64,000 bases of DNA from a virus (taxonomy: Duplodnaviria > Caudoviricetes), in the IMG/VR virus record IMGVR_UViG_3300044295_000323, positions 897 through 64,896 of that record; one strand, given 5' to 3'. The translations under genes and the position numbers were made by a program. This document shows positions 14,622-62,419 of this stretch, piece after piece. Each line of letters starts with the position of its first letter. Positions within the stretch are counted from its first letter, which is position 1. Below the pieces are notes generated by a model. That model worked only from the letters and a program-made list of their open reading frames with translations, was not told the origin of the DNA and made no database searches.

Positions 14622-14952
14622 CCTTCACCTTTCCTGTCAGGCGATAGTAGGCGATACCCTCGACACACGGACGGATCGAACGGGACCACCCGGTGTTGAG
14701 ACCCACCCATGTCCCAGAACGCTTATCGGTGTCGTCCCAGGCCCACGCTCGCCACTCCACGCGATTCGGGCCAGAGATGCAGGCGATCTGGATGTTCCAG
14801 CCGCCGATGTACCACGCCATATAGTCATCGTTCCGAACTTCAGTCGCCGTAACAGCGTTGGAAAAGAGACGCCTGACAAGGGCGTCTCTTTTTTGTTGGG
14901 TATAGCGTCGATGCTTGAGGTCGTTCATGTTGTAGCACCTGCTACTTTCCAC
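14611..14952 (-). CDS. Trp-rich early protein with helix-RLTG motif
   Basis: ends SIRPCVEGIAYYRLTGKVKDAE; start may be 14928. Confidence 0.65.
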   Translation of the reverse strand: MESSRCYNMNDLKHRRYTQQKRDALVRRLFSNAVTATEVRNDDYMAWYIGGWNIQIACISGPNRVEWRAWAWDDTDKRSGTWVGLNTGWSRSIRPCVEGIAYYRLTGKVKDAE

Positions 14953-14961
14953 GCCGCATGG

Positions 14962-16257
14962 CTACTTCTCCTCGTGGATCGAGAAGGGGACGTGCTCGCC
15001 GTAGCCGGGCACGACCTGGGACGAGACGCACCACACCACGGGCACATCCACCGGACTGCTCGTGCTGAAGTCCGTGTAGCCATCCGTCAGGCAGACGATC
15101 ACCTCGACGTCTTGCAGCTTCTTCGCAATCCACCGGAAGCCCGCTTCCATATCGGTGCCACCGCCGGAGTAGAACTCCAGCTTCACCTCGTCGCCCTGCG
15201 CCGGCACGAACTCCAGGTGCTTCTGGACCTGGGTGTCCACATAGAGGACATGCACCTTGCTGGGGTTGCACTGCTCAATGATGCGTGCCATGTGGCCGGC
15301 GTAGTGCCGCAGTTCGATCTCGGAGATCGAGCCCGACACGTCGATCTGCAGGCAGATCTCGCCCATCATGGGCGTCTTGCCCACCCACGGCAGGTAGTGC
15401 TCGGTGTAGCGACGGTTGCGCTTGGCCCACGTGGACTCTGACCGGGCGAACGAGGTCATGTAGCGTTCGAGCTTCTCGTACCACGGCACCTTAGACTCGA
15501 TCAGTTCGGCCGCCCACTTGCCAATGGCACCGGGCAGCTTGCCCTGCATCTTGGCCGTCTGGGTGGCCTGCGCGATAGCGACCTTCATCTCGGCCTCCTG
15601 CTGCTTGGCCTGATCGGCCGTCATCGGGCCGCCCTTCTGCACCAGGTCACGGCCCACCCCGCCGATGGCCTGCCCGTGTCCGGGGCACTGGCAGGGTTGC
15701 CCACCCTTGCCGTGCTTGTGCTGCTTGGACTTCGACTTGCCCTGGCCCTGCTTGGACTGCTGTTGGCCCTGGCCCTGACCATCTTGCCCGCCATCGCCGT
15801 CCTGGCCTCCGCCCTGCTGCTGGTCGCCCACTTCGCCGCCGCACTGGGCGCACTTCACGGGCGGCAGTTCGTTGTAGATCTGGTCGGTCGTCTTGTCCTT
15901 GCTGCCCGGCATGTCGATGCCGCCCTCGATCATCTTGCCGATGCCGTCCTGCTTGAGCAAGTCGTTGATGAACGCATCGCCGGCGATGTTCCACTTCAGC
16001 TGGTGCCGATGGCCGAGACGTCCGGCGTGCTGGCACACCACGTGCATGACCTCATGGGCGAGGAGGAAGATCACTTCTTCCACGTCCATGTTCTCGATGA
16101 ACTTGGGGTTGTAGTAGATCTGTCCCCACTGATCGACGGCCGCCGTCGGGCACCACGGTTCGGTGACGGCGACGAGGGGACGTCTCAGCAAGATCGAGGC
16201 GAAGAACGGGTGCTGAAACACCATGTGCGCCTTAGCGCGTTCGAGAACTGTTGCCAT
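14962..16257 (-). CDS. metallopeptidase + VWA domain protein (DUF2201-like)
   Basis: HEVMH zincin motif, Gly/Gln linker, MIDAS DVSGS, GGGTD, LTDGY. Confidence 0.85.
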   Translation of the reverse strand: MATVLERAKAHMVFQHPFFASILLRRPLVAVTEPWCPTAAVDQWGQIYYNPKFIENMDVEEVIFLLAHEVMHVVCQHAGRLGHRHQLKWNIAGDAFINDLLKQDGIGKMIEGGIDMPGSKDKTTDQIYNELPPVKCAQCGGEVGDQQQGGGQDGDGGQDGQGQGQQQSKQGQGKSKSKQHKHGKGGQPCQCPGHGQAIGGVGRDLVQKGGPMTADQAKQQEAEMKVAIAQATQTAKMQGKLPGAIGKWAAELIESKVPWYEKLERYMTSFARSESTWAKRNRRYTEHYLPWVGKTPMMGEICLQIDVSGSISEIELRHYAGHMARIIEQCNPSKVHVLYVDTQVQKHLEFVPAQGDEVKLEFYSGGGTDMEAGFRWIAKKLQDVEVIVCLTDGYTDFSTSSPVDVPVVWCVSSQVVPGYGEHVPFSIHEEK

Positions 16258-16311
16258 TGGATTACGCTCCTTCCTGAACACTGACGTTGTTGTTATTCAC
16301 GTTTCCCACTG

Positions 16312-16497
16312 CTACCACATAACTCCTTGTCCGGCGAGGTAGAAGAACCACGCCGCGAATCCGAAACAGACTAATGCGATCCACCCGGTGCCGATCCGAC
16401 CCAGCATCATGTTGTCTGACATGAGGAACATCCACGCGTAGAAGTTCCAGCACCACACCAGACCGCACGCGACTTGTGACCACTTACTCCACGACAC
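16312..16497 (-). CDS. small two-TM membrane protein
   Basis: two hydrophobic segments; SD AAGGAG. Confidence 0.55.
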   Translation of the reverse strand: MSWSKWSQVACGLVWCWNFYAWMFLMSDNMMLGRIGTGWIALVCFGFAAWFFYLAGQGVMW

Positions 16498-16897
16498 GCG
16501 TGACTCCTTTCTTCTGTGTAGCCGATGCTACAGGCTCAAACTCGCCGGTCAACTTGAACACCGTCATGATCGCCACCACGTCTTCATCGGTGCGGCAGGC
16601 GACGTTCTTGGTCCCAGTACCGACATGATCAACAAGTCGAAGGACCCACCGGCGCCCAGTTCGTGAACCTTCCACTGGGCCTAGTACTCCTGGAGAATAG
16701 TCACTACTCCAGGTACGGAACTCGTCCGCCGTGGTGATGAAGATCCCCAGCTTTATATCGTTTTGCCGGCGATCACCCGGTTCTCTGTAGATCTGCCACC
16801 AGTCCCTAGCAACTGGACCGGGGGAGGTCAGGGGTACCGGAATCGGTACCCCTGAGTTGGTCGTCCGAACGATGCCATCTGGATTAGAAGATGACAT
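16484..16897 (-). CDS. early protein with helix-KLTG motif
   Basis: TDEDVVAIMTVFKLTGEF near the C-terminus. Confidence 0.6.
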   Translation of the reverse strand: MSSSNPDGIVRTTNSGVPIPVPLTSPGPVARDWWQIYREPGDRRQNDIKLGIFITTADEFRTWSSDYSPGVLGPVEGSRTGRRWVLRLVDHVGTGTKNVACRTDEDVVAIMTVFKLTGEFEPVASATQKKGVTRVVE

Positions 16898-17909
16898 CGG
16901 AGTTCTTCACCGTCCAGTCGATGAAGGCCTTGTTAGAGCGGAGCTTCTTGTCCCGCACCAGCGCGTCCTTCACGCACAGCACGCTGAATTCCTTGGGCAT
17001 CCGCGCCATGTAGTCGAGGACGAGGTTAAAGTTGGCCGGCGTGGCCTTGTTCGCCAACGCACCCGAGATGGCGTACTGTGTCGCCGGGTCGGTCGGGACC
17101 TTGGCCTTCTGCGGATTCTTCAACACCTCGTCCAAGTCCGGGAGGTTCATGTAGATGCGGCGGAAGCCGATGTACTCGGCGGCCGCACCCTCGCCCACCT
17201 CGCCCGCCACGTTGCCCATGTAGCAGGCTTCGTCGAGTGTGTCCGGAATCAGGCTGACCTTCTCCCAGCTACGGGGCGTCGGATTGCTGCTGCGGTTCGG
17301 GTCGAAGTCGAACAGCAGGTTCGGCTTGAAGCGCAGGAACTGGATCATGTCGGTGGGCAGGCCGTTCGGCTGGGCGAAGCCCTCAATCCAGTCGTCCAGG
17401 TTCACGTCGAAGTGGAGCATGCGGACGCGGTTGCCAAGCTTCGTCGACAGGCGATTGGCGCCCGACTTGTCCTCAGTGCGGTTGCCCGTGCAGACCACGT
17501 AAAGTTCGTCCGTGAGCTGCAGGTCGCCGACCCGCTTCTCCAACAGCAGGCCCGAGAGAACGTTCTGCACCGGCATTGTGCTGTCAGTGAACTCGTCCAA
17601 GATCAGGCTCGCCGGCCCCGTCCCCTTGCGGATGTTGTAGAGGATGGACGGCGGCACCCAACGCACCGACTCGCCACTCAGCTCCGGCAGCCCGAGAAAG
17701 TCGCACGTGTCGAGGTGGCTCGGGTGCATGAACAACTGGCGCTCCTTGGGAATCGCCTTGCCGTCCGACGCCACGAGTTCCTTGATCGCGTCCTTGGCCA
17801 CGCTCGTCTTGCCACCGCCGGGCGCGCCGGTGATGAGGAAGCGGACTTCGTGACCACGGGGAGCCGCGAACTGGGCGGCGAGGGACTTCTTGATTTGAGT
17901 GTAGCGCAT
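16884..17909 (-). CDS. MoxR-like AAA+ ATPase
   Basis: Walker A GAPGGGKT, Walker B LILDEF, TGNR sensor, LGNR, PTPRSW; VWA partner downstream. Confidence 0.85.
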   Translation of the reverse strand: MRYTQIKKSLAAQFAAPRGHEVRFLITGAPGGGKTSVAKDAIKELVASDGKAIPKERQLFMHPSHLDTCDFLGLPELSGESVRWVPPSILYNIRKGTGPASLILDEFTDSTMPVQNVLSGLLLEKRVGDLQLTDELYVVCTGNRTEDKSGANRLSTKLGNRVRMLHFDVNLDDWIEGFAQPNGLPTDMIQFLRFKPNLLFDFDPNRSSNPTPRSWEKVSLIPDTLDEACYMGNVAGEVGEGAAAEYIGFRRIYMNLPDLDEVLKNPQKAKVPTDPATQYAISGALANKATPANFNLVLDYMARMPKEFSVLCVKDALVRDKKLRSNKAFIDWTVKNSDVIF

Positions 17910-17985
17910 GGTGTGATTCTCCTCAGTCGTGGGGTTTCTTTATCGTAGGTCTCCCACGGTCCTACGCACAGCCAGTAGCACCATG

Positions 17986-18306
17986 CTACTGGTCTGTATC
18001 TTGTGGACACCCGGTAAGGAGTTCCGCCACAAGGGCGGCCCTCAACTCATCCCAGGTATCAAATCGTTGAACAGGCCTATCCGAGTTGTAGTAGCGCAAC
18101 CACAAAGGTTGTGCAGGATAGCCAATTTGCTCTTCGTCTTGTGCCACTTTTATGCCGATCTGCACACCGACGTTACCTATGTAGCCACGATAGTTTGTCC
18201 AATCACCATTGGCATCATACCGCTGTCTGTCGAGCGTGCGGTAGAATCCCCACTCATTGAGCTGCTCTATGACGGTGTCGAGTTCTTCCGGTGTTAGGGC
18301 TGGCAT
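17986..18306 (-). CDS. early protein with helix-LLTG motif
   Basis: ends TWDELRAALVAELLTGCPQDTDQ; SD GAGG. Confidence 0.6.
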   Translation of the reverse strand: MPALTPEELDTVIEQLNEWGFYRTLDRQRYDANGDWTNYRGYIGNVGVQIGIKVAQDEEQIGYPAQPLWLRYYNSDRPVQRFDTWDELRAALVAELLTGCPQDTDQ

Positions 18307-18572
18307 GTGTCGTCCTCGTTGTCTTCGATTCCCAAGTGAAAGAGTAGCACACGGCGGACAAGTTCCTCTTCGGATGTCAGGCCGATGCTGCACACATTGC
18401 TCGTATCGTAGGATGTGTGCGTGGCGCATACGTCGCCCTGGGCAGTTCTCAGAATCCACCACCCTGGACCGGTGTTTGTTCCTGTCGACGCCCACATGGT
18501 AGTCCCACGTGTGGTATTGCGCTCGGGAATTTTCTTGAGTTGTAGCTTTGCTACAAGTTCGTCCAGCGTCAT
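18294..18572 (-). CDS. early protein, weak motif variant
   Basis: SEEELVRRVLLFHLG; SD GGAG. Confidence 0.55.
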   Translation of the reverse strand: MTLDELVAKLQLKKIPERNTTRGTTMWASTGTNTGPGWWILRTAQGDVCATHTSYDTSNVCSIGLTSEEELVRRVLLFHLGIEDNEDDTCQP

Positions 18573-18576
18573 GGCG

Positions 18577-18945
18577 TTACGATCTCCAGAATTGCCACCA
18601 CCGCTTGGGTGCAGGGTGGACTGGGGGGCGCGGCTCGAACCACTGACCTTCGATGTTGCACAGGTAATCCATGTTGTGCCCATTCCGCAACACCGAACAG
18701 TACTTAAACGAGTGTTGTGTTTGCTTGGGATTTCTGCATTCGTCGAAATTAGCTATGCCGCGTAGAGTACACAGCGCCTGCCGGTACCAATGAATGCAAT
18801 CCACGCAGCGCTTCTCCTCGACGCCGTGTTCGAGCAAGTAGATGATGCGCTCCTGGGTGCGGCGCTCATGGAGCTCGCGCACTAATTCCTTGACGAGCAG
18901 GCGCGGGAAGAATCGCAGTAAAAACGCACGTTTGAACTTCTGCAT
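18577..18945 (-). CDS. Cys-rich protein (CxDC..., KRWW tail)
   Basis: CVDCIH...LCNIEGQWFEP...KRWWQFW; paralog of 7388..7669. Confidence 0.65.
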   Translation of the reverse strand: MQKFKRAFLLRFFPRLLVKELVRELHERRTQERIIYLLEHGVEEKRCVDCIHWYRQALCTLRGIANFDECRNPKQTQHSFKYCSVLRNGHNMDYLCNIEGQWFEPRPPVHPAPKRWWQFWRS

Positions 18946-19064
18946 TAGACTTCTCCTGTCAGACGCCACGCCACGAAGCGGGCCTCGGCCTCTTTCAGGC
19001 CCACGTTGTTGGCAATCTTCACTGTATTTGCATAACCGGGGTAGCCCAAGTAGATGCGCCACAC
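18945..19064 (-). CDS. 39-aa peptide with helix-RLTG motif (not in ORF track)
   Basis: MWRIYLGYPGYANTVKIANNVGLKEAEARFVAWRLTGEV; TAATG overlap with the next gene. Confidence 0.55.
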   Translation of the reverse strand: MWRIYLGYPGYANTVKIANNVGLKEAEARFVAWRLTGEV

Positions 19065-19113
19065 ATTTCGTTAATATGGAGTGGGAATTTCTTCCAGACG
19101 TCGCCGCCTAGTG

Positions 19114-19147
19114 AACGAAAGCCCCAGGTATGGAAGATACCTGGGGC
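19114..19147 (-). terminator. intrinsic terminator
   Basis: GCCCCAGGTAT-CTTCC-ATACCTGGGGC then TTTCGTT. Confidence 0.6.
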
Positions 19148-19187
19148 CTTGACGGTCGTTCGTGTCGTGCTTCATCTCATGTGCTCC

Positions 19188-19667
19188 TTAGACGTGGTAA
19201 GTCAGCGTCTTACGACCGCTGCCCTTGCACGCGGGACACGGTTCGTTCGCGTTGTCGGCACTGTGCCCGAGTCCATTGCACGCCTGGCACTTGGGGGCCG
19301 GCACCTGCGGACTCACGATCTCCGTGTTCGGGGGCGCGGCGTGGAACCCAATGCGCACCGACTTGGACTTGACATTGCGGCTGCCGCTCGGGGTCTCACC
19401 CACCTCGTCATCCTCGGCGCTCATGTGGCGTTTCAAGTTCTTGAGCATAATGCCCGCCCCCAACGCGGACCCCTCGGCCCCCTTGCGCAGGGCCGGCATC
19501 ATGTCCCATAGGTAAGCGGCCAAGATCAGGGCCGTCACGACTATGCCCAAGATCTGGGTGGGATAGTCCATGCCAGCCTGGCGCAAGATCCATCCGACCT
19601 CGATGCCCCCGCCGACGACGATGGTGAGGTCTGCGATCAGCGCCACACCGGTGAAGAATGTTTTCAT
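19188..19667 (-). CDS. two-TM membrane protein with DnaJ-type Zn finger
   Basis: CQACNGLG and CPACKGSG repeats; SD AAGGAG. Confidence 0.65.
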   Translation of the reverse strand: MKTFFTGVALIADLTIVVGGGIEVGWILRQAGMDYPTQILGIVVTALILAAYLWDMMPALRKGAEGSALGAGIMLKNLKRHMSAEDDEVGETPSGSRNVKSKSVRIGFHAAPPNTEIVSPQVPAPKCQACNGLGHSADNANEPCPACKGSGRKTLTYHV

Positions 19668-19714
19668 ACGTGTCTCCTTTTCTTTTTGCTACGTTGACCA
19701 GGATGTAGCACCTG

Positions 19715-20026
19715 CTACACCTCTGTGGGAGATTCACCTGTTAGACGCCACACGGTGAACCATTGATACACTTGCATCCAGTCGTCCGTCATGGGAGATG
19801 CTTGTATTATTTTATTCGTGGCTTGGTCTGTGGTGTAGAGGGCCGCGAATGAGCGATCTGCCGACAGCCAAATGAGAGACTCCCCGTTGGTAGTCGCCTT
19901 GGCAATGAAGATGCGCCACGAGATGTCGGTAAACCTTTCGTTGTTCGTGGCCCACCGAAATTCGGACTCCCGCCCAGATAGGGCACCCACCGGGATGGGA
20001 TAATCCGCTAACTTTCTTAAGGCCAT
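19715..20026 (-). CDS. early protein with helix-RLTG motif
   Basis: ends DWMQVYQWFTVWRLTGESPTEV. Confidence 0.6.
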   Translation of the reverse strand: MALRKLADYPIPVGALSGRESEFRWATNNERFTDISWRIFIAKATTNGESLIWLSADRSFAALYTTDQATNKIIQASPMTDDWMQVYQWFTVWRLTGESPTEV

Positions 20027-20340
20027 GTGAACTCTGGGTAGGTGAACTTCAGCCACACCACGTAGGCAATCAGGTCCCGGTCGGTCTTGAACGATTTGTC
20101 CTTCGGGGTACTGGCCCCCTCAAAGAAGATACGTATGACCCACTTCGCCCCCTTGATCGTGGCCCGATCGCTTTTCGCCAACGGCTTCGAAACCATCTTG
20201 TAGTGTTCGACGGTCGTGATGTAGATGCGGGGGCCGCCGAACGTGGCCTGTTTTGTCAATAACCACCAGCTCCACGTAGCCCACGTGGTGGGGATGGGAA
20301 ACGTGCCCGTGTTGATGTGGTCTCGTTTAGCGTCGGCCAT
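20017..20340 (-). CDS. Trp-rich early protein, motif variant
   Basis: TDRDLIAYVVWLKFTY. Confidence 0.55.
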   Translation of the reverse strand: MADAKRDHINTGTFPIPTTWATWSWWLLTKQATFGGPRIYITTVEHYKMVSKPLAKSDRATIKGAKWVIRIFFEGASTPKDKSFKTDRDLIAYVVWLKFTYPEFTWP

Positions 20341-20473
20341 AGTCCCACCAGTTCTCTTGTTGATGGGTCGTCGCAATCGCTACAGTCCCAAGGCCTTCCA
20401 GATAGGGGTCAGCTCGATATTTCTTGAACCAATAGAACCAGCCCCATTTGTAGCGTTTCCACTTTGGCTTCAC
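20327..20473 (-). CDS. 48-aa Trp/Lys-rich peptide (not in ORF track)
   Basis: MKPKWKRYKWGWFYWFKKYRADPY...; SD AAAGGAG; GTGA overlap. Confidence 0.5.
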   Translation of the reverse strand: MKPKWKRYKWGWFYWFKKYRADPYLEGLGTVAIATTHQQENWWDYGRR

Positions 20474-20772
20474 TTGTGTGCTCCTTTCTTCAAACGTGGC
20501 GCCAGGTTCTGGCAGAGACGACTGGCCCTTAACCAGCGGTCTAACGTGTAGCGTGTGCTACAGGTATCGATCTGGCGATAGATGCCCAGCGTTAGGTTGG
20601 ACGTGCCCCGTGTGGGTGTCGTCTTCATCATCTTGGTGTGCAGATGGGGGCCCGAGAGATTCTTCCATAGTCCGAGCTTCCCATATTGGAGCTCCCGCTT
20701 CAGTGCGACCAACTGCCACTTCTTGGCGTTGGCCTTGGGCCCTTGGGCAATGAGCGAATAACGCATCAGCAT
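20470..20772 (-). CDS. early protein, weak motif variant
   Basis: TRYTLDRWLRASRLCQ; SD AGGAG. Confidence 0.5.
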   Translation of the reverse strand: MLMRYSLIAQGPKANAKKWQLVALKRELQYGKLGLWKNLSGPHLHTKMMKTTPTRGTSNLTLGIYRQIDTCSTRYTLDRWLRASRLCQNLAPRLKKGAHK

Positions 20773-21113
20773 GGGGCAACTCCTGTCATGATGAGGACGG
20801 CGAGATCTGCAAGGGCATCCTCGGGGCGGCGTCGGCCACAATAGGGACCATTCATATAGTTGCGCGCACCGTTCTTATCGGGGGGCCCGAGCTTGTGAAT
20901 GAGCCACTCTCCGTTGCGCATGTTGTAATCGTCGGACTTATTGTTCTCATCTTTGCAGAACACGAGCAGGTATTCACCATCGGGTGATCGCCACGACGCA
21001 TACCAACTTCCCGGTCTCGCGTAATGATCGTTCCACCAGTCGGTGCCAAGAACGTCGAACTCCTTGGGCAGCTCTTTCGGCACAGGCACTGGCAACGCCT
21101 TTCGTCGGCTCAT
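20766..21113 (-). CDS. Trp-rich early protein with helix-IMTG motif
   Basis: ends RPEDALADLAVLIMTGVAPC. Confidence 0.65.
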   Translation of the reverse strand: MSRRKALPVPVPKELPKEFDVLGTDWWNDHYARPGSWYASWRSPDGEYLLVFCKDENNKSDDYNMRNGEWLIHKLGPPDKNGARNYMNGPYCGRRRPEDALADLAVLIMTGVAPC

Positions 21114-21466
21114 AGAATAGTCCCCAGCAAATTGGCCCGCACAACTAGGAGATTGATGTGGTCTAGGCTACGGACGGGCACAGACTCTATATAGTCGCCC
21201 TCTTCGTTGGGCCTTAAGAGATAGAGACTGACAGTCCATGTTGAGGTATCACGATCCACGTAGAGGTTACCGACACCCTTAACTTCCCGATTCGCGTTGA
21301 AATAGATGCCGCTACAGGGTGGCGTTGCATTGCACCTATAGAACTGCGGCAATTCGTGGTGTGGGCACGAGATGTAGACATCGAAGCCGCGCCGATGGAG
21401 CTCCAGGGCCCACCGACGCGCCTTCCGAACGTGACGTTTCGCTTTCATCTTTTGTTGAACCTCCAA
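21110..21466 (-). CDS. early protein with helix-NLLG motif
   Basis: ends SLDHINLLVVRANLLGTIL. Confidence 0.6.
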   Translation of the reverse strand: MEVQQKMKAKRHVRKARRWALELHRRGFDVYISCPHHELPQFYRCNATPPCSGIYFNANREVKGVGNLYVDRDTSTWTVSLYLLRPNEEGDYIESVPVRSLDHINLLVVRANLLGTIL

Positions 21467-21517
21467 ATGGAGACCCAGGGGTAGGAAGCTTCCACCTCCT
21501 ACCCTAGGGACTACACT

Positions 21518-21778
21518 CTAGGCCGCCACGTCGACCTGCTGCTCCTCCTTGCTGCTGGGAAAGGGCTTGCCCGTGTCGTCGCAGTTGATACGCCGCCGGT
21601 GGTTGATGATCGCACCCTCGCTGTGCTGCGTCACGCGGCGCTCGTCCTTCTTACCGCGCTTGGAACCCCGGCTGTGCGCCCGGAGCTTGCCCGTCTTGGG
21701 GTCCTTCTTGCTGAAGTAACGGGCGATGGCGCCCCGCTTGCCGGGATTACCCTGCTTGATCTTGTTCGCCTTCGGCAT
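21518..21778 (-). CDS. highly basic small protein
   Basis: SD AAGGAAGGAG; Lys/Arg-rich. Confidence 0.65.
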   Translation of the reverse strand: MPKANKIKQGNPGKRGAIARYFSKKDPKTGKLRAHSRGSKRGKKDERRVTQHSEGAIINHRRRINCDDTGKPFPSSKEEQQVDVAA

Positions 21779-21795
21779 TGCTGGTGTCTCCTTCC

Positions 21796-22080
21796 TTAGT
21801 ACTTGCTGTTGATTTGCGGGATGGCCGTGGTCATCTGGATGCGCAACTGGCCCACAGTCAAGTTGCACACCTGCGGAAACTCCGCGTTATCGAGCTCGAT
21901 GCAGATGACCGCGTCCGCCTTGACGGCGCGGTCGATGTTGATCTGCGCGGACGACGAGGGGCCAGGGGTGGTGTCGTCGTGGGCGTAGGGCCCGGGGTCC
22001 CGACGCCCATGAACGCCACTGTCACAGGCCGCCGTCACCGTGACGGCCATGACAATAGCAATAATCGACTTCGTGTGCAT
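21796..22080 (-). CDS. putative lipoprotein
   Basis: MHTKSIIAIVMAVTVTAAC lipobox; SD AGGAGG. Confidence 0.6.
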   Translation of the reverse strand: MHTKSIIAIVMAVTVTAACDSGVHGRRDPGPYAHDDTTPGPSSSAQINIDRAVKADAVICIELDNAEFPQVCNLTVGQLRIQMTTAIPQINSKY

Positions 22081-22137
22081 CGAATGGAGCCTCCTGAGCT
22101 CCGTGTGTGTAGCACCTGCTACAACCTTGTTGGGCGT

Positions 22138-22476
22138 CTACTCTTCTGAGACGCCAAAGATTTTGCTGAGATACAGGTTTCGACACTTTGCGAGGCTCTT
22201 ATGGTCGGCCTCAATACGCACATTGCCTCGTGAAGAGCCCATAATCCACTTGTTGTTGTAGTAAAAGACTTGGAACCAGTTGTACCCTTGTTGTTTCACA
22301 ACTTCCCAGATGCCATACTTGAAATCAGGGTCCCACTCCTTCGGTTTATAGGTCCACGACAGGTGGCCGAAGTGGGCTTGAAGTTGTTTCGGGAGTAGCT
22401 TGGTCTGTGGCTTCTTGATGCTGATGCTGCGGCGTTTACGCGTTTTCATTCCCATTCTCCCAAAATTCGATGCCAC
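22138..22476 (-). CDS. Trp-rich early protein, motif variant
   Basis: ends SLAKCRNLYLSKIFGVSEE; start may be about 22456. Confidence 0.6.
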   Translation of the reverse strand: MASNFGRMGMKTRKRRSISIKKPQTKLLPKQLQAHFGHLSWTYKPKEWDPDFKYGIWEVVKQQGYNWFQVFYYNNKWIMGSSRGNVRIEADHKSLAKCRNLYLSKIFGVSEE

Positions 22477-22515
22477 TCTGGACTCAGGGTGAGGAATTCA
22501 CTGGGAAGCTTCATT

Positions 22516-22815
22516 TTAGACCCACTCTCCCGTCAGCACTAGCGCGGCGATTTCGGCCTTCATTTGCTCTGGTGTCTCGGTCGCGATGAAGAGTCTGCTA
22601 CCACCAGTGCCATACCCAAATCGAACAAGACGCCATTTGCCATAATGTCCGTAGTTACCGCGCCAGCGCGGACTCAGCAAGTAGAAGCCGCGTTGGCTGT
22701 CGTCGTGCTCGTCGGTATACCACCAGCGCCCACCGTCGACTTCACTGCTGCCTTTCTTCCACGCCGCGGTGTCGGCGAGACACTCGGGAAATGTATCAGA
22801 TGCGACAACGCTCAT
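22516..22815 (-). CDS. Trp-rich early protein with helix-VLTG motif
   Basis: ends TPEQMKAEIAALVLTGEWV; SD GGAG. Confidence 0.65.
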   Translation of the reverse strand: MSVVASDTFPECLADTAAWKKGSSEVDGGRWWYTDEHDDSQRGFYLLSPRWRGNYGHYGKWRLVRFGYGTGGSRLFIATETPEQMKAEIAALVLTGEWV

Positions 22816-22892
22816 TCGATTTCTCCGGTCAAGCAATGGAGGATCAGCGCCCTGGCCATGGCTTCACGATGGGCAATAGTCGGACTTGCCAT
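22812..22892 (-). CDS. 26-aa peptide that is essentially the helix-LTG motif (not in ORF track)
   Basis: MASPTIAHREAMARALILHCLTGEIE; ATGA overlap with 22516..22815. Confidence 0.5.
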   Translation of the reverse strand: MASPTIAHREAMARALILHCLTGEIE

Positions 22893-23039
22893 CGCTTCGT
22901 GTGACGGGATAGGTGGTTTTCATCAGGATAGCTCCTAAGTTTGTAGCACCTGCTACAACAGCGGACAGAAGGCACGGCACACACGAATACACACCACTAC
23001 ACTACGCGTTAAAAGATGCTGACGGGGACTTCGACGATA

Positions 23040-23264
23040 CTACTGGCGAACGATGGGATAGTCGCTGAGGTGCCACGCGAACGCGGCCAACACGACGACC
23101 AGGGTACCCATGATCGCGACGAGCAACTGGATGATGTCCATCGGCCGGCCAAACGCGCCAAAGACGACGGCGAGCATGACAAACAGATAGACGAGCATCC
23201 AGATAACTGATCGGCGCCACTGCACGAGGGCACTGGCGTGGCGGAGATTAAGCAGGTCTGACAT
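23040..23264 (-). CDS. two-TM membrane protein
   Basis: two hydrophobic segments; SD GAGG. Confidence 0.6.
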   Translation of the reverse strand: MSDLLNLRHASALVQWRRSVIWMLVYLFVMLAVVFGAFGRPMDIIQLLVAIMGTLVVVLAAFAWHLSDYPIVRQ

Positions 23265-23266
23265 GC

Positions 23267-23554
23267 TCAATTCCTCACGATCCAGAGCAACACCACCACC
23301 AACCAAAAGGCGAGTGGTGGTGTAGCAAGTGCTGCACACCAGCGTTTCCACGTGTATTTCTTCTTCGTGAACGGGGTCATGGTCAAGATGCTGACGATGG
23401 CGTTCACCGCAAACCACGCGGTGGCCGACAACTGCGGCAACTCTGGCATCAGGAGGTTGATCTTCCAGATGAACCAGGACTCCCACATCATGGAGAGCAG
23501 GCCAAACAGTGGTAGCACGAGTAACGCCACCAACAGGCTGAAGATTTCTAACAT
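23267..23554 (-). CDS. multi-TM membrane protein
   Basis: three hydrophobic segments; SD AAAGGAG. Confidence 0.6.
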   Translation of the reverse strand: MLEIFSLLVALLVLPLFGLLSMMWESWFIWKINLLMPELPQLSATAWFAVNAIVSILTMTPFTKKKYTWKRWCAALATPPLAFWLVVVLLWIVRN

Positions 23555-23673
23555 AGGGACTCCTTTCGTAGGTGTGTCCCCATGTGCCGTGCCTACTATC
23601 CACTGTTGCTGATAGGTAGTATGCAACCTAGAGGACCCGAAATGTAGCAGATGCTACAGGTGGATTTCTAACG

Positions 23674-23874
23674 TTAGTGCAACAACTGACCGAACAGGAT
23701 ACGCTCCCCTTCTCGCGGGGCGCCCATTTTGGAATACATGGTGAACGGCATGGTGGCCACGGTGGTCTCGTGCTGCACCATTGCCGCCGTGAGGGACTCG
23801 GCCGCCGTGACGCGGACGTGCCGGCCCTCGTTCAACTGCTCGACCTTGACGACGACCAGTGAGGTTTGTTTCAT
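23674..23874 (-). CDS. hypothetical protein
   Basis: SD AAAGGAG. Confidence 0.6.
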   Translation of the reverse strand: MKQTSLVVVKVEQLNEGRHVRVTAAESLTAAMVQHETTVATMPFTMYSKMGAPREGERILFGQLLH

Positions 23875-23998
23875 CTTTGGAGCTCCTTTTACTGGGCTCT
23901 AGGCTGGATACTACCTACCCGCAACGGTGTAGCACGTGCTACAAACGGACGCGATGGGCACAATGGGAGACACCCCTGGCCTTGGGGTTTAATGGTGA

Positions 23999-24256
23999 CT
24001 AACGGGTGAAGTAGCGGTAAAGCTCGCGCTCACGGTCGACATTCGACACGTGCTGCGCGTCACTGAGCTTGGTTGCCCAGTGTTCGACGTCGAACGTGTC
24101 CCCGCGTTTGATGGCGCGGATGCACGCACGTTCTTCGGCCCTGACCTGGCGCTGGCGCACACGGTCATCGGCCAGGTGTTCGGCTTCAAGGACCATGCGG
24201 TCGAGGATTTCTGGCAGGTAACGGTCGCGGGGATTCTCGGACGTGGATTTCATCAT
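23999..24256 (-). CDS. hypothetical protein
   Basis: SD AGGAG. Confidence 0.6.
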   Translation of the reverse strand: MMKSTSENPRDRYLPEILDRMVLEAEHLADDRVRQRQVRAEERACIRAIKRGDTFDVEHWATKLSDAQHVSNVDRERELYRYFTR

Positions 24257-25050
24257 GGGACTCCTGACGTGGGGATGCCCCCTATTGTGCCCACCTAGCC
24301 AGTTGTAGCACGTGCTACAGTTGTGGATAAGTAGGTGGCTAGCGCGGAGAATTGATCTTCTGAAGTTAGTTGCCTAACTCCGACTCTAAACTCCTCTCGG
24401 AGTTGGAAGGAAGGTTGTCACGATGCCGACTCACACTGTCGCTCTTAGTAGGGATTACAGACGATGCTTGACTCCCAACAGCTACGTTAATGCTGTCCCT
24501 GTCCGCTATGCCCACACGACGCATTGCCGTATTGCTCGCCTGATACAGATGTGGAGGGCGCTACAGGATTATGTGGGACGTCCCGATAGTCTGGGCGTCA
24601 CGTCCTGCTAAGGCGCTGGATTACGGCGCCTATTCCTAGTCTCATTCTCTCGGCCCTCTGGTTGTTACGAGGGTTCCTTTGCCCACTGGCGCAGTTGCCG
24701 CATCACCGGCCCTGCCGTGGTCGCCTTTCGCCATTTGTTGCGAGTGATTCTCAGACTGTAGCAGGTGCTACAGTGGATACCAGACTCTCGGCAAACTATG
24801 GGACACAAGCCACGCAACGACAGGCATTATGGGTTAGCCTGCTACCACGTGGGTTATAGGCGAGAGTAGGGAATAGCACGTTTCACAACGTCCCGATATG
24901 ATGTCCGATCGTCGCCTTTGGCCTAACCTGCAAACTGTAGCAGATGCTACAAATTTGGCTTGTGGCTAGACTTTGGGGCTCCTGGATAGCAGAGCATAGC
25001 TCCGCCCTCTGGCCCAATGTCCCGTATTTAGTTGACAAAGATCACGTATG

Positions 25051-25104
25051 TCTGGTTTCGCCGTTTCCGGCTCATCAGTAAGGGTAATTCACCCTTAGAC
25101 CAGA
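25051..25104 (-). ncRNA. type III hammerhead ribozyme
   Basis: UCUGGUC | stem I UAAGGGU/ACCCUUA | CUGAUGA | stem II GCCG-GAAA-CGGC | GAAA-CCAGA; all core nucleotides present; GUC cleavage site. Confidence 0.9.
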
Positions 25105-25140
25105 GGTAAGGCCGGGGTTTGCCCGGCCTTACCTTGTGTG

Positions 25141-25620
25141 TTACTTGGACTGCTTGACCGCCCGGAGTTCGGCGCGAATGGCACGCATGATGCCTTCGGC
25201 TACCTTCAGCGAGGCCGCATCTGTCGGATAGGCCGCATTCCACGCCTCACGCGAGGTATCGACGCTGGACACTGCTTCGTCTGCGGCCTGCTTCTCGTCA
25301 TTCTCGGCGCCGATCGCAGTCCCGTCCGCCTTGAATCCCGCATACTTGAGAATGCGGTAGAAGGACGTGCGGGCGTAATCGACGGACGCACCACGCTCTG
25401 AGACCATGTAGCGCCCCCATGCGTCCTGTGTGAACTTGCGAGCGGCCTTGTCCGCTACAAGTTCGGGCGTGAGAAACGCCTTAGCCGCCGTCGCCAGCGT
25501 CTCATCCGTCTTGGCAATCAGCGTGGCAGCGTGTTGTAGTGCCGTCATGTTGAGCTGAATGGTGCCAATGGTGACGATCATGTCTGAAGTGGCCTGAGCG
25601 GTCGTATTTTCGGTATTCAT
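25141..25620 (-). CDS. first gene of the leftward operon, Ala-rich hypothetical protein
   Basis: SD GGGAG; followed by a 12-bp hairpin (25105-25133) and the ribozyme. Confidence 0.7.
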   Translation of the reverse strand: MNTENTTAQATSDMIVTIGTIQLNMTALQHAATLIAKTDETLATAAKAFLTPELVADKAARKFTQDAWGRYMVSERGASVDYARTSFYRILKYAGFKADGTAIGAENDEKQAADEAVSSVDTSREAWNAAYPTDAASLKVAEGIMRAIRAELRAVKQSK

Positions 25621-25736
25621 GTGATTCTCCCTATCTGTAGCAGTGCTACCGGATAGGCACCATGCCTATCAGGGTAACTTCGCGCCTGCTTACCGCGCGT
25701 TTGAGTTGTCAAAGAACGACGATGCCGACAAGCATA

Positions 25737-25771
25737 TACAAGCGCCGTGCCAACACGCTAAGTTGTTGATT
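25737..25771 (-). promoter_or_regulatory. sigma54-like promoter with adjacent IHF box
   Basis: TGGCACG-GCGC-TTGTA (GG-N10-GT, one mismatch at -12) preceded by AATCAACAACTTA (matches WATCAANNNNTTR). Confidence 0.5.
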
Positions 25772-26330
25772 CTAAAGAGTTTACCCACTTGGCACAGGTA
25801 TGCTTTAGACCAATTTACCGTGTAAAAAGGTAATTGGTATATGTCATAACTACATCCCACAGGAAGTTCAACGAATTGGATAGGAAATCCAAACGGTTGG
25901 ATCCGTAGCTGGTGGGGGCGCCCTACCCCTCGCCTCGGTCACTTGCCCTAATAGGCCAGATGCCCTAGGATCGCTGGCCGGGGCACCTTTTGCCCCTAGG
26001 GGCCACCCCCGGCGGGGGGAGAAAAAAGGCCCCAAAATTTTCCAGCACCCCCCAAATTTCAGCGTCCGGTGCGCCTAGAGCCCCCATCCAGAGCTCCCAG
26101 GGGTAGGAGGTCTGCCCTACGAGCTCATCGCCCCCAGAGGCTCCTAATGGGCCCTGGGGCCGGCGCCCACAGAACGGGCGCCCCTCGCCACCGTCTGCCC
26201 TAGAAATCTTATATAGAGTGAGCTTCCCACCTCGGGGGCTTCCAAACGGGGTGTTCCATCCCAATACCTATAAGGTATGTACTGAAATATGTGACAGAAA
26301 CACCCCCCCAAATCTCGCTATCTGCCCTAT

Positions 26331-26423
26331 TATCAACAACTTACAGCCATCTACCCTGGAAATCTATTTTGACACGTTCCATTTTCATCTGACACACCAA
26401 GGAAAGAGGCTAAATTGTTGATT
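26331..26423. promoter_or_regulatory. two further IHF consensus boxes
   Basis: TATCAACAACTTA at 26331-26343 (+) and AATCAACAATTTA at 26411-26423 (-) in an AT-richer noncoding stretch. Confidence 0.55.
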
Positions 26424-26555
26424 TTAAACGACTTAGGGGCGTTTTTCAGCCCCCTAAGTAGGTGTTCCAGACCCCGTTCCACGCCATTTCACCCTGAAAC
26501 ACCCCCAAAATGGGCCGTTTTTGTAACCTCAGGCCAACGCCGGCGTCCAAGAACT

Positions 26556-26816
26556 ATGACGCCAGCCCAGATTCGACGTGCGGCCAGGGATCGCCAACGT
26601 CTGAGACGCCGACGGGTCAAGGAAGCCCAGGAACAAGGACTGCCGGCCCCCCAGATGAAGCGTGGGCGGCCACGTAAGTTGCGCGAACTGACGGAAGAAG
26701 AGGCCAGGGACGCCAATACCGCCATGGTCCGGCGCTACCGAAGTCGCAAAGCCTGGGCGATTAAGATGTGGCGCAAGTTCGAGGGGTCCAAACTGGCCCG
26801 GAAACGCAAGATCTAG
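26556..26816 (+). CDS. small basic protein with AT-hook-like motif
   Basis: KRGRPRK; Arg-rich. Confidence 0.5.
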   Translation: MTPAQIRRAARDRQRLRRRRVKEAQEQGLPAPQMKRGRPRKLRELTEEEARDANTAMVRRYRSRKAWAIKMWRKFEGSKLARKRKI

Positions 26817-26825
26817 CCCTAGATC

Positions 26826-26854
26826 TTGACTTTGACCACAAGATGTGGTAGTCT
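26826..26854 (+). promoter_or_regulatory. sigma70-type late promoter 1
   Basis: TTGACT-17bp-TAGTCT with extended TG; nearly identical to 31891-31919. Confidence 0.75.
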
Positions 26855-26989
26855 AGTTGAAGCTTGGGGTGAGGTGGATCCTGTGCTGAAGCTGGCCCCT
26901 CCCACCTCTCCTCCCAGCCGCCCGGCGCGGTTGCATTCCCCTCCCCCAAGCGCCCCATTCGGGGCCATTTTTCATGAGGAGCGTTCCAT

Positions 26990-27559
26990 TTGGCCCTTAG
27001 GGGTGAGAAGCAACTCAAGGCGCGGGCTGCTAAGATGCTCGAAGCCAAGATCTTGACCGGTAAGACCAACGCCGAATTGGCCAAGGACTTCGGGGTCGGG
27101 CCAGAAGTCGTGCGTCGAGCTCTCACGTTGGCCGAACGGGCCGAGATCGTCGTCAAGTTCGAAGACAAGCTCTATAACGACCTCTTGCCGGCCAGTTTTG
27201 AGGCCGTCCAGACGGCATTACAGGGCGGGGGCGACGTCGCGTTAGCCAAGATCGGGCTCCAGGTATTGACGGGAACCCAAGTATTGCGCCCCACGGCCCA
27301 GCGCTCAGCGATCCAGGCGCAGGAAGACGACGAATTGGCCCTCTATGTGGCCGCCAAACGGAAACAGGCCGAACTTCAGGCCCGCACAGTAGAGGCCGAA
27401 TATGTCCACTCGACAGTTAATGAGGCAGAAGGCACGAGAAATCTTCTTCCAAGCCATGGACCCGCGACGTTTGTCGAGGAAGGAGCGCCGGAAGACGGTG
27501 AAGATGGCGCTGAAGACCCTCAAGTTGACGCTCCAGAAACAGACCTCAATAGGAGCTAA
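26990..27559 (+). CDS. putative terminase small subunit
   Basis: N-terminal HTH (TNAELAKDFGVGPEVVRRAL); lies upstream of TerL; SD GAGGAG. Confidence 0.55.
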   Translation: MALRGEKQLKARAAKMLEAKILTGKTNAELAKDFGVGPEVVRRALTLAERAEIVVKFEDKLYNDLLPASFEAVQTALQGGGDVALAKIGLQVLTGTQVLRPTAQRSAIQAQEDDELALYVAAKRKQAELQARTVEAEYVHSTVNEAEGTRNLLPSHGPATFVEEGAPEDGEDGAEDPQVDAPETDLNRS

Positions 27560-27780
27560 TGACGATGTTTGATCACTACACCGACTCGTATATGAATGGA
27601 CACTTCCGGGTCGCCATTGACTCGAAAGAGCTTCCCAACGGCGAGTGGGAAGCCTCGTATACGTCCCCCTGGGGCGAAACGGTGACCGCCACGTCGACCG
27701 ATCAGATCGACGCCCATCGTCAGTGCGCAGAGAAGGTGCGCGAGGGCGTTCTCAAGCGCGAGATTCAGCTCGGCCGCTAG
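27559..27780 (+). CDS. hypothetical protein
   Basis: SD AGGAG; TAATG overlap. Confidence 0.6.
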   Translation: MTMFDHYTDSYMNGHFRVAIDSKELPNGEWEASYTSPWGETVTATSTDQIDAHRQCAEKVREGVLKREIQLGR

Positions 27781-27786
27781 TTCCCT

Positions 27787-29445
27787 GTGCCCCCTAGAAA
27801 ACTCTCTAAGCAAGAAGAAGTCCTCAAGGGGCTTCCTACAACGACGTCTGACCTCGGATTCCTGCCCTTTAAGGACGTCATCGAGGATCCGATGCTGATG
27901 AAGCCCCTGTGGGACCAGCTCTCGGCGCCGCAGCAGGTGGCGTTGAAAGCGTTCTATGGGCTCCCACTGGAGGGCCGCGAGCTCGACATTTGGGCCATTT
28001 TCCAGGACTCCTGCACCTACGATCCCCTTGGGTACGTCACAGATATCGTGCGAGTACCCTACACGCCCAAAGAATACTCACTCCTGGTGGGTATTCTTGG
28101 GCGGCGTTCGGGGAAATCAAGCCAAATCACGGCCTTTGCCACCCTCTACGAGATCCTCTTTGGGGGTCACATGAAGGACGTGATGAAGGGCCAGGACGTA
28201 GTAGTGCCGTATATTGCGCAGGACTTGGCGACCGCGAAGGCCAACATGGTCTTTGTGGCGCTGATGGCCCAGCAGGTACCCCTATTAGCTAAACAGATTA
28301 GCTACTTCTCGCGGGATCGCATCGAATTTAAGAACGGCATTGTGATGTTGCCAGAACCCCCCGCCATCAAGACCGGTCGTGGCTTCGCCATGCCGATCGT
28401 CATTGGCGACGAGGTGGGGTTTTGGTACAAGACGGCTGAAGCGGCCAACCCTGACGTTGAGGTCCAGCGAGCTGTCCGTCACGCCCAGGCCCAGTTTTCC
28501 AGGGCCAAGCAGTTCCTGATCTCGACGCCCTATACCGAAGAGGGCTTGCTGTGGAAGTATCACCGGGCCGGCACCGCCGGCGCCAAGACCTCGCTCGACA
28601 AGCGCGACCAATTTGCTGACGTTCTGGTGTTGCAGGCGTCGACGGCCGCGATGGAGAACCCCAGGATTAGCCGCAAGCGCCTGGTCGAACTCCAGATGGA
28701 AGACCCTGACGCCTTCATTCGTGAGTCGTTAGCGCGGTTTGTCTCGTCGATTAATAGCTATTTTCCGGCCGAGTTGATCCACAAGGCCACGATGCAGAAC
28801 AAGGCCGAGCGGACCCGCGCTGAAAACGAAGACAGCGGAATGTTGCCTAATTATGTGGCGGCGATGGACCCGGCGTTCCGACATGACGACTTTGCCTTCT
28901 CGATCTTCCACGTCGACAAAGATGGAACCGTAGTCCAGGACGTCCTCAAGGTCTGGAGCCCTAACGAGAATGGCGGCCAACGCCTCAACCCGGGGGACAT
29001 CTTGGCCGAAATTGGCGCGATTTGCCACAACTGGAACATTGGCGTCGTCTATAGCGACCAGTATCAGTTGGAATCACTCCAGCAGATGGCCCAAACCTAC
29101 AACTTCTCCATCATCGGCAAGGACTTCACGGGGGCGAGTAAGGCCAAGATCTATGGCTCGTTGCTCCACCTGATGAGAACGGAGAAGATCAAGCTGCTCG
29201 ATAAGCCGGTCATTATCACGCAGTTGACGCAACTTCAGAAGAAACTGGGCGCCATGAACACCGTACGCATCAGCGCCCCGAACGGAAAACACGATGACGT
29301 GGCTAGCGTTATTGCTCTGGGTGCTTCTGTGGCCCTAATGCATCGTCCCGACATCAAGCTCGTCAAGAAGGAGCCCACGTTATTTGACTTGGGTATGGAT
29401 TGCATCCGGCGCCGGCGTCTGGAAGCAGAAGAGGTGTGGACTTAA
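27787..29445 (+). CDS. terL: terminase large subunit
   Basis: GRRSGKS Walker A, IGDEVGFW Walker B, ISTP, AMDPA and KHDD nuclease aspartates. Confidence 0.9.
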   Translation: MPPRKLSKQEEVLKGLPTTTSDLGFLPFKDVIEDPMLMKPLWDQLSAPQQVALKAFYGLPLEGRELDIWAIFQDSCTYDPLGYVTDIVRVPYTPKEYSLLVGILGRRSGKSSQITAFATLYEILFGGHMKDVMKGQDVVVPYIAQDLATAKANMVFVALMAQQVPLLAKQISYFSRDRIEFKNGIVMLPEPPAIKTGRGFAMPIVIGDEVGFWYKTAEAANPDVEVQRAVRHAQAQFSRAKQFLISTPYTEEGLLWKYHRAGTAGAKTSLDKRDQFADVLVLQASTAAMENPRISRKRLVELQMEDPDAFIRESLARFVSSINSYFPAELIHKATMQNKAERTRAENEDSGMLPNYVAAMDPAFRHDDFAFSIFHVDKDGTVVQDVLKVWSPNENGGQRLNPGDILAEIGAICHNWNIGVVYSDQYQLESLQQMAQTYNFSIIGKDFTGASKAKIYGSLLHLMRTEKIKLLDKPVIITQLTQLQKKLGAMNTVRISAPNGKHDDVASVIALGASVALMHRPDIKLVKKEPTLFDLGMDCIRRRRLEAEEVWT

Positions 29446-34460: not shown

Positions 34461-35051
34461 GTGAAGAAAACATCAAATCTTTCTCCAGATCAACTCATTG
34501 AGCTTCGGGCCAAGCGTGCAGCCTACATGCGTAGGTACAACGCAAGGCCCGAGGCCAAACTCCGAAATAAAGAACGCAATCTACGATACAAGTCACAAAG
34601 GCGGGAAAAGTTAGCAGCACAAGAAAGTGCCCGCTATTATGCGAACCACGAAAAGGCTCTAGAGTACAGACGCCAATATCGACATTCCCTAAGTCCAGAA
34701 GAAAAAGCCAGGCAACAACAGATCCGAAAAGAGTGGGCCCAGCAAAATCCTGATCGAGTCGCAGCGTCTTACCAACGACGTAAACACACCGATGCGTATC
34801 GGTATAAGGCCACAGAACAAAAGGGCAAACGTAAAGCTCGGGTTTCTGGAGCGCGTATCGAACGAATCAATTGGCGTCAGGTGTGGTCCACGTTTGACGG
34901 CACGTGCAATCTTTGTAAGAAAGAACTCCGCATCGGAGTTCACACCTACCACTTCGATCACATTGTAGCGTTGAGCCGAGGTGGCGCACACAGCACAGAC
35001 AATCTTCAGATCGTCCACGCAAAGTGCAACCTTTCCAAAAATCGCTACTAA
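34461..35051 (+). CDS. HNH homing endonuclease
   Basis: CNLC...FDHIVALSRGGAHSTDNLQIVHAKCN; AT-richer than flanks. Confidence 0.85.
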   Translation: MKKTSNLSPDQLIELRAKRAAYMRRYNARPEAKLRNKERNLRYKSQRREKLAAQESARYYANHEKALEYRRQYRHSLSPEEKARQQQIRKEWAQQNPDRVAASYQRRKHTDAYRYKATEQKGKRKARVSGARIERINWRQVWSTFDGTCNLCKKELRIGVHTYHFDHIVALSRGGAHSTDNLQIVHAKCNLSKNRY

Positions 35052-62406: not shown

Positions 62407-62419
62407 GCCTATATGATGC

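Follow-up and report, generated by a model that had tools for sequence, protein, structure and literature searches.

Hammerhead ribozymes lying between the genes of phages and prophages were reported in 2010-2011, often with several copies flanking small genes (PMC3088659). These intergenic ribozymes self-cleave both in vitro and in E. coli cells, and the processing of long phage transcripts was proposed as their function (PMC3088659; PMC6765202). Hammerhead cleavage was also detected in Desulfovibrio by cyPhyRNA-seq (PMC8782182), and later reviews continue to regard the role of the phage ribozymes as open (PMC6155905; PMC6765202). Here, we describe a hammerhead in a 65-kb freshwater phage whose 64,896-bp virus record carries direct terminal repeats and is estimated to be 100% complete; the window, that is, the whole 64,000-nt stretch of DNA that was analyzed, covers bases 897-64896 of this record.

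The hammerhead and its hairpin in the leftward gene block

Gene-sized leftward ORFs extended from 25.6 kb to the window start and occurred again at 55-64 kb, their products including an AAA_25 helicase-like protein, GP88, DUF2201 plus AAA_5, DNA polymerase A and ribonucleotide reductase, and the rightward ORFs at 27-55 kb included a terminase homologue, a P22-like portal, an SU10-like capsid protein and an HNH endonuclease. The minus strand carried the replication and nucleotide-metabolism genes and the opposite strand the structural genes, and the leftward block was labelled early because of this gene order. One HNH endonuclease ORF (34461-35051, plus strand) was found within the structural block just past the capsid gene and another (61972-62421, minus strand) adjoined the ribonucleotide reductase gene; both are possibly homing endonucleases.

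Coding potential was scored by codon usage after training on 23 long ORFs, the ten training genes listed spanning 0.045-0.558. Because the score of the 159-aa ORF ahead of the ribozyme (Table 1) fell inside this range and no ORF with gene-like codon usage was found by this scoring in 25621-26989, this ORF ranks as the first convincing gene in the leftward block. The first-pass annotation, which was made from the sequence alone and had named it the first early gene, was thus right about its rank, the word early reflecting gene order only. The 159-aa protein matched no Pfam or PHROG family, and in the Atlas it resembled viral look-alike clusters only, which are without names. The ~1.37 kb between the divergent gene blocks (25621-26989) may be an origin, packaging or regulatory region. 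By eye, several G-runs of the form TTTGGGGGGTG were seen there on the minus strand at ~26040-26520, and a 25-nt direct repeat was located at 25752-25776 and 26404-26428. The sequence TGGCACGGCGCTTGTA at 25737-25752 (minus strand), ~120 nt upstream of the 159-aa ORF, resembled a sigma-54 promoter, for which the consensus is TGGCAC-N5-TTGC, but had T for C in the -12 element. A 10-mer repeat, ATCGGGACGT, also spotted by eye, was dropped, as it had merely two exact copies.

The hammerhead, reading UCUGGUC^UAAGGGU-GAAUU-ACCCUUA-CUGAUGA-GCCG-GAAA-CGGC-GAAA-CCAGA on the minus strand from 25104 to 25051, had a complete conserved core (C3 U4 G5 A6 N7 G8 A9, G12 A13 A14, the A15.1-U16.1 pair and H at position 17), three helices with standard pairs next to the core (10.1-11.1 and 1.1-2.1), and the topology of type III, with stems I and II closed by loops and the 5′ and 3′ ends leaving through stem III. 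Its alignment to RF00008 (Rfam Hammerhead_3) and to R2, a covariance model of related phage hammerheads described below, contained zero core mismatches. When 601 nt were searched, RF00008 matched 25050-25105 on the minus strand over its full length (model positions 1-54 of 54) with 44.7 bits and an E-value of 1.5e-8, and this match was the single one across the whole 64,896-bp record (E 3.8e-10). The score was lower than the Rfam gathering cut-off of 48.5, and an Rfam scan of the window at the default gathering cut-off listed nothing. The earlier claim of an intact type III hammerhead with all stems and the core on the minus (sense) strand was therefore borne out, as were all coordinates given with it, exact to the base and including the cut; the Infernal-type check proposed along with it returned the full-length match and fell short at the curated cut-off.

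The stem lengths (7-bp stem I, 4-bp stem II) and the GAAA loop 2 fit the phage subclass. Loop 1 was atypical, with UGAAUUA/GAAUU here versus UGNGUG in the family, and the nearly invariant second G (column 16 of the 29-sequence alignment) was replaced by A. Because GAAUU is without this nearly invariant G, it is uncertain whether loops 1 and 2 make the contact on which rapid cleavage at cellular Mg2+ depends. The 96-nt stretch consisting of hairpin and ribozyme folded with a minimum free energy (MFE) of -46.7 kcal/mol (z -7.26; 0 of 200 shuffles as stable), the MFE structure being a 13-bp hairpin followed by a three-way junction, and the MFE structure kept this fold when the flanking sequence was included, 100, 200 or 480 nt of it upstream and 150 nt downstream.

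The hairpin directly ahead of the ribozyme, GGUAAGGCCGGG-CAAAC-CCCGGCCUUACC at 25133-25105, was likewise confirmed by sequence and fold as a 12-bp element following the stop codon of the 159-aa ORF, which lies 7 nt ahead of the hairpin and 36 nt ahead of the ribozyme. Our parser assigned it 12 pairs and -23.8 kcal/mol, with gap 0 to stem III; a 13th pair, A25134-U25104, is possible. The sequence 3′ of the hairpin, CUCUGGUCUAAGG, contains no U-run, and a terminator scan listed no terminator-like site at 25105-25133. Because the U-run is absent, the hairpin is not an intrinsic (Rho-independent) terminator by itself.

Removal of the 5′ arm of the hairpin from the folded sequence altered the MFE structure, in which the GGCC of the freed 3′ arm paired with the GGUC of stem III (-23.0 versus -21.7 kcal/mol) and the ribozyme junction of this one sequence was lost. 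In this folding model, the hairpin would sequester a GGCC that otherwise pairs with stem III. The same pairing, with a stop codon 7 nt ahead of the hairpin, could be taken as a sign of conditional cleavage, whereby a ribosome terminating at the UAA opens the 5′ arm, the freed 3′ arm mispairs with stem III, and translation of gene 1 tunes the folding. We consider this very improbable, since the energy gap is only ~1.3 kcal/mol, the alternative pairing is known from this single sequence, and the distance from stop codon to ribozyme in the family, 11-53 nt, implies no fixed geometry.

Table 1. Features of the ribozyme locus, with positions counted in the window
Feature	Position	Strand	Details and basis
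159-aa ORF	25141..25620	-	codon score 0.463; GGGAG upstream of ATG; stop UAA 25143-25141
G+C-rich hairpin	25105..25133	-	12 bp, loop CAAAC; last base directly adjoins stem III; gap 0
Type III hammerhead ribozyme	25051..25104	-	sequence, RF00008, model R2, fold
Stem III	UCUGG 25104-25100 / CCAGA 25055-25051	-	5 bp, plus U16.1 (25099)-A15.1 (25056)
Cleavage site (predicted)	C17 = 25098; bond 25098/25097	-	GUC; sequence
Stem I	UAAGGGU 25097-25091 / ACCCUUA 25085-25079	-	7 bp; U25097-A25079 next to core
Loop 1	GAAUU 25090-25086	-	sequence
Core	CUGAUGA 25078-25072; G12 A13 A14 at 25059-25057 (GAAA 25059-25056)	-	sequence
Stem II	GCCG 25071-25068 / CGGC 25063-25060	-	4 bp; G25071-C25060 (10.1-11.1) next to core
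Loop 2	GAAA 25067-25064	-	sequence
RNA downstream of cut	24257..25050	-	~800 nt without convincing gene; three palindrome copies
Palindrome copies	14932, 17975, 19705, 22109, 22943, 23644, 23929, 24305, 24758, 24937, 25637		pattern search, 14932-25649
Palindrome GTAGCA-N-TGCTAC	25637..25649		directly ahead of ribosome-binding site of 159-aa ORF

A family of phage hammerheads with an abutting upstream hairpin

A core pattern requiring a GAAA loop on a stem II of 4 bp retrieved 50 stretches from the viral collection (sample 1), from which 29 distinct type III hammerheads were parsed, duplicates and ten loci without a type III parse being dropped. The same pattern of stem II and GAAA loop also matched three short records of the viral collection, 322-457 nt long (L022, L025, L048), which at a guess are viroid-like. 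The alignment of the 29 phage hammerheads contained 99.8% standard pairs, with 13 of the 17 pairs changing on both sides; stems I and III were paired partly by construction of the parser, and stem II, which was unconstrained, was 99.1% paired. The covariance model R2, built from these 29 hammerheads with the window element left out, matched the window element over its full length with 60.4 bits (rough E 4e-15). The search covered 367,580 bases and produced no other match with E ≤ 1; two weaker matches of 10.5 bits (E 7.6) were without stems I and II. By the measure of sequence, 25051-25104 is a real type III hammerhead, a new case of the already described phage ribozymes, and it is probably constitutively active.

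Hammerheads of this subclass were also present in five complete ~60-kb phages (L010, L019, L038, L043, L047; G032-G036), with 1-3 ribozymes per phage, some of them 0.6-2.6 kb apart. RF00008 produced nine matches of 33.5-45.7 bits in these genomes, and the gathering cut-off was reached in none of the five. Because all nine matches were also below the cut-off, the sub-threshold score of the window element is a property of the subclass rather than a defect, and routine Rfam annotation at the curated cut-off misses the whole phage subclass. The low Rfam score, together with the atypical loop 1 and the single copy in the genome, would be expected as well from a chance resemblance or from a dead, non-cleaving relic; we regard this as extremely unlikely in view of the per-genome E-value, the score against the independent family model R2, the core without deviation, and the nine sub-cut-off matches in the other phages, which indicate that the cut-off is high for this subclass.

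The 29 family members were similarly positioned relative to genes, an open frame of at least 50 codons stopping 11-53 nt ahead of the ribozyme in 20 of them and an ATG-started frame of at least 45 codons beginning 10-31 nt past it in 21. A PHROG match was obtained for 4 of 42 gene fragments flanking the family hammerheads, the functions being otherwise mostly without assignment. At six loci on phage contigs that look unrelated to one another (L014, L015, L019, L026, L030, L039), a homologous gene end with the motif ...VNRPNA.F.TFL...P I V..MY... and no PHROG match was located directly upstream of the module, which hints at a linked gene family upstream of the hairpin and hammerhead. On one 31.5-kb contig (L002/L003), two hammerheads 1.6 kb apart bracketed a single gene, and the same arrangement was seen in L016/L017, L023/L024 and L046/L050. 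Both ends of the gene bracketed in L002/L003 matched PHROG 1314, the N-terminus of which we take to resemble the DUF2201 metallopeptidase family; a DUF2201 protein is also encoded by the window phage (14962-16281).

To count hairpins like the one in the window, our own parser required at least 6 bp and an energy of -8 kcal/mol or lower, with the hairpin ending within 2 nt of stem III. Among the 28 sample-1 examples with at least 45 nt of upstream sequence, 19 had such a hairpin and 15 had it at gap 0, compared with 164 (~10%) and 73 of 1700 control windows from the same loci. These counts correspond to odds ratios of ~20 and ~26 (Fisher p ~4e-13 and ~3e-13) for sequences that are related and non-independent, for control windows that are mostly coding, and under definitions of our own. 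Sample 2 was selected by the loop-1 motif, which occurred in at least 124 stretches; 80 loci were taken, and 45 distinct ribozymes were obtained among the matches listed. A loop other than GAAA on stem II made 35 of these 45 (again among the matches listed) new relative to sample 1. The hairpin was found in 34 of the 45 ribozymes listed, at gap 0 in 31, and in 28 of the 35 new ones, so that over both samples ~70% of the 73 examples among the matches listed carried an abutting hairpin. The hairpin sequences varied widely from example to example.

The window element combined an R2 match with a hairpin at gap 0 and a stop codon at 36 nt, inside the family range of 11-53 nt. Taken together, the composite module of stop codon, hairpin and hammerhead is found repeatedly between genes of many tailed phages unrelated to one another, and the hairpin, treated in the first-pass annotation as an incidental neighbour, is instead a recurrent and precisely abutting partner. 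An abutting upstream hairpin was not mentioned in the running text of the phage hammerhead literature that was searched, the figures and PDF supplements of which may show it. Because the abutment is exact, mostly with gap 0, and stem III has only 3-5 pairs, coaxial stacking fits better than a mere nearby terminator. The instance in the window by itself adds little; the survey result gives a concrete handle on the role of these ribozymes, the coupling of hairpin and ribozyme being a testable generalisation on folding and on the stability of the upstream message.

Distribution, natural variation and the RNA downstream of the cut

A blastn search of 50,697 phage records with 24000-26500 and with the 96-nt element returned nothing relevant, the one match, 25 nt of the hairpin in a Xanthomonas phage, being dismissed as chance; among these records, no cultured phage resembles the ribozyme region. 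Searches for related loci that started from the 159-aa protein or from the single terminase sequence were negative. The terminase had many homologues of 43-77% identity, and the alignment of 31 of them led to 31 viral loci. RF00008 had no match at E ≤ 1 in any of these 31 records, only 3 of which are at least 90% complete, and R2 had no match in the 31 loci and L084. Two rightward ORFs adjoining the terminase were found in 19 and 17 of the 31 loci, and tblastn of 17 leftward ORFs (20017-26968) against all 31 revealed no homologue. The early region is therefore not conserved at this evolutionary distance, which makes an orthologous comparison with the terminase relatives impossible. Conversely, the terminase of the window-phage family was found in none of the five complete ~60-kb ribozyme phages. 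A genome-contig search yielded one 2.5-kb MAG contig. Two 20-mers from the window were absent from the viral contig collection, and their single metagenome match (L083) was rejected as an unrelated high-GC contig.

Closer kin of the window phage were found only as contigs of freshwater metagenome runs, none of the runs listed being of RNA; they were compared over 24700-25700, those of X3-X5 only where they had cover. A near-identical contig (X6; 538 nt, depth 4.1) spans hairpin and ribozyme and has kept the element, with at least three differences in the ribozyme: a U7-to-C change at 25074, a difference at 25088 and, beside 25089, a 1-nt insertion, the last two lying in loop 1; the number is a lower bound, as 8 of the 23 differences of this contig are beyond those listed. 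In the CUGAnGA consensus (PMC10085705), position 7 corresponds to the variable n. The same contig has a 4-nt deletion just 3′ of the ribozyme. A second contig (X3; 9,510 nt) aligned on both sides, with 25048-25116 replaced by 86 unlike letters; with one breakpoint in the hairpin loop and the other 3 nt past the ribozyme, the replacement takes in the 3′ arm and the whole ribozyme. A third contig (X4) ends at the same place, 25047. In the X3 and X4 runs, the related contigs were also mosaic within the 159-aa ORF, where 129 nt (25162-25290) were replaced by 117 unlike letters, an in-frame difference. The ribozyme is thus sporadic, with one close relative (X6) having kept it and another (X3) having lost it to other sequence, and the element is dispensable or exchangeable.

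Such a distribution raises the question of whether ribozyme and hairpin form a horizontally moving or hitch-hiking cassette, active or not, that is tolerated between accessory genes and confers no specific benefit on expression. The sporadic occurrence, with absence from 31 of 31 terminase-related records and presence in one to three copies in five complete phages outside this terminase family, would fit such a cassette, as would the flanking genes of varying and mostly unassigned function and the exchange of the element in X3. We nonetheless consider this reading unlikely. The core and helices are intact here and in X6, where the changes listed are at tolerant positions only, covariation across the family is strong, and the precise location that recurs, past a stop codon and ahead of the following start, argues for selection on a function in the transcript.

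The RNA that would follow the cut (24257-25050), termed the downstream transcript in the first-pass annotation, lacked a convincing gene. Every ORF in this stretch scored negative for codon usage, and near-identical contigs had 1-nt and 4-nt indels within it. A 51-codon frame with a TTG start begins 12 nt past the ribozyme, with a codon score of -0.169 and frame-breaking indels in related contigs. The next-gene start found 10-31 nt past the ribozyme in 21 of the 29 family members had no counterpart in the window. Because no convincing gene follows for ~800 nt, protection of a downstream mRNA is less obvious here than in other phages. The stretch may represent a long leader or an RNA without coding function. 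A 46-nt block within it (24989-25034) showed no difference among those listed in two related contigs, and its flanks differed at many places.

The leftward block also contained a 16-bp perfect palindrome, T-GTAGCA-N1-3-TGCTAC-A, with 11 copies versus 0.02 expected, all within this block and mostly 17-100 nt upstream of ORF starts. The spacer is 1, 2 or 3 nt long; in a related contig, one spacer is shortened by 1 nt. The next copy past the ribozyme, at 24937-24950, is ~100 nt away. No copy was found in the 207 other loci fetched. The palindrome may serve as an operator or as a promoter-linked site, or it may form a small hairpin in RNA. Its right half was considered as an extended -10 promoter and rejected, the T at the last hexamer position being present in only 3 of the 11 copies. 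No promoter was identified at the palindromes, with 2 sigma-70-like sites in 23500-28000 versus 2.2 expected by chance.

The stretch past the cut brings up a further possibility, that cleavage shuts down the downstream RNA. The untranslated RNA with its 5′-OH would then be Rho-terminated or degraded, hairpin and ribozyme would jointly form a protein-independent end of the gene 1 unit, and the downstream genes would use start signals of their own, perhaps the palindromes. The ~800 nt without a convincing ORF agree with this, as do the hairpin, which without a U-run is no intrinsic terminator by itself, and the eleven palindromes that precede downstream genes; in Bacillus, the 5′-OH product of the glmS ribozyme is degraded by RNase J1. 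We find this account improbable, as the gene start shortly past the ribozyme in most family members fits the delivery of a downstream message, and as no promoter was found at the palindromes, with sigma-70-like sites in 23500-28000 not exceeding chance.

Proposed processing and comparison with known systems

The best explanation, to which we assign a probability of about 0.7, is that the window contains a genuine, probably active hammerhead in a recurrent hairpin module, which cuts itself and thereby uncouples the message of gene 1 from the RNA that follows. In a leftward transcript, formation of the 12-bp hairpin would come first, followed by folding of the adjacent ribozyme. The hairpin would stack end-to-end on stem III, which is short (5 pairs and the A-U pair), and would prevent its own G+C-rich arm from pairing wrongly with that stem. 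The RNA would then cut itself after C25098. The upstream product would be the mRNA of the 159-aa gene, ending in the hairpin, a 7-nt tail and a 2′,3′-cyclic phosphate, an end presumably resistant to 3′ exonucleases and to polyadenylation. The product past the cut would start with a 5′-OH followed by the hairpins of ribozyme stems I and II. As a net effect, the gene 1 message would be uncoupled, physically and kinetically, from the following and largely non-coding RNA. The motif, its fold, its place in the family and the repeated occurrence of the hairpin are shown by the analysis, whereas we infer that the minus strand is transcribed, that the RNA is cut in vivo, that hairpin and stem III stack coaxially, and that stability is affected. 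The RF00008 score below the gathering cut-off, the atypical loop 1, the dispensable or exchangeable nature of the element and the lack of an ATG-started gene within 31 nt weigh against this main reading.

The first-pass annotation had stressed protection of the downstream transcript by its 5′-OH end. Whether a 5′-OH is stabilising or destabilising depends on the RNases of the host, such as RNase E versus RNase J1, so any such protection in the window phage would vary with its host. The recurrent hairpin speaks at least equally for a role in the upstream product, through protection of its 3′ end, and in the folding of the short stem III. We tentatively carry this one step further, to a proposal that falls somewhat short of an even chance: the hairpin would be the fourth integral helix of a distinct phage module, stacking on stem III, driving its folding and capping the upstream mRNA. 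Such a module would provide stable 3′ ends and clean 5′ ends without a protein, and it would spread horizontally among unrelated phages while being missed at the Hammerhead_3 cut-off.

The closest described systems are the phage and prophage hammerheads of Perreault et al. 2011 (PMC3088659), which are alike in their canonical core, in their intergenic location and in the neighbouring small genes of unassigned function. The likeness extends to the cutting of long transcripts into gene-length mRNAs proposed for them, and the other family phages surveyed here have 1-3 copies, some of them flanking single genes. The window phage differs from them in having a single copy with no gene directly after it.

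Viroids and plant satellite RNAs carry type III hammerheads that share the open stem III and the capped stems I and II. Those of PLMVd, CChMVd and sTRSV process multimeric circular RNA genomes in rolling-circle replication, whereas the window ribozyme would be a single site on the mRNA of a dsDNA phage. RiboJ-type synthetic insulators, which consist of a hammerhead and a hairpin in the 5′ leader, standardise the mRNA end and buffer its context. The usual placement of the family ribozymes, 10-31 nt ahead of a start codon, is reminiscent of RiboJ; the extra hairpin of RiboJ, however, is downstream of the ribozyme, whereas that of the phage module is upstream and would stay on the 5′ product.

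A parallel for the upstream product is offered by phage T7, in which the early transcript is cut between genes by RNase III and a 3′ hairpin stabilises the upstream message. In both cases, a polycistronic phage transcript is, or would be, cut between genes with a hairpin left on the upstream 3′ end. T7 needs a protein enzyme of the host for this step, whereas the RNA of the window phage would cut itself, leaving cyclic-phosphate and 5′-OH ends.
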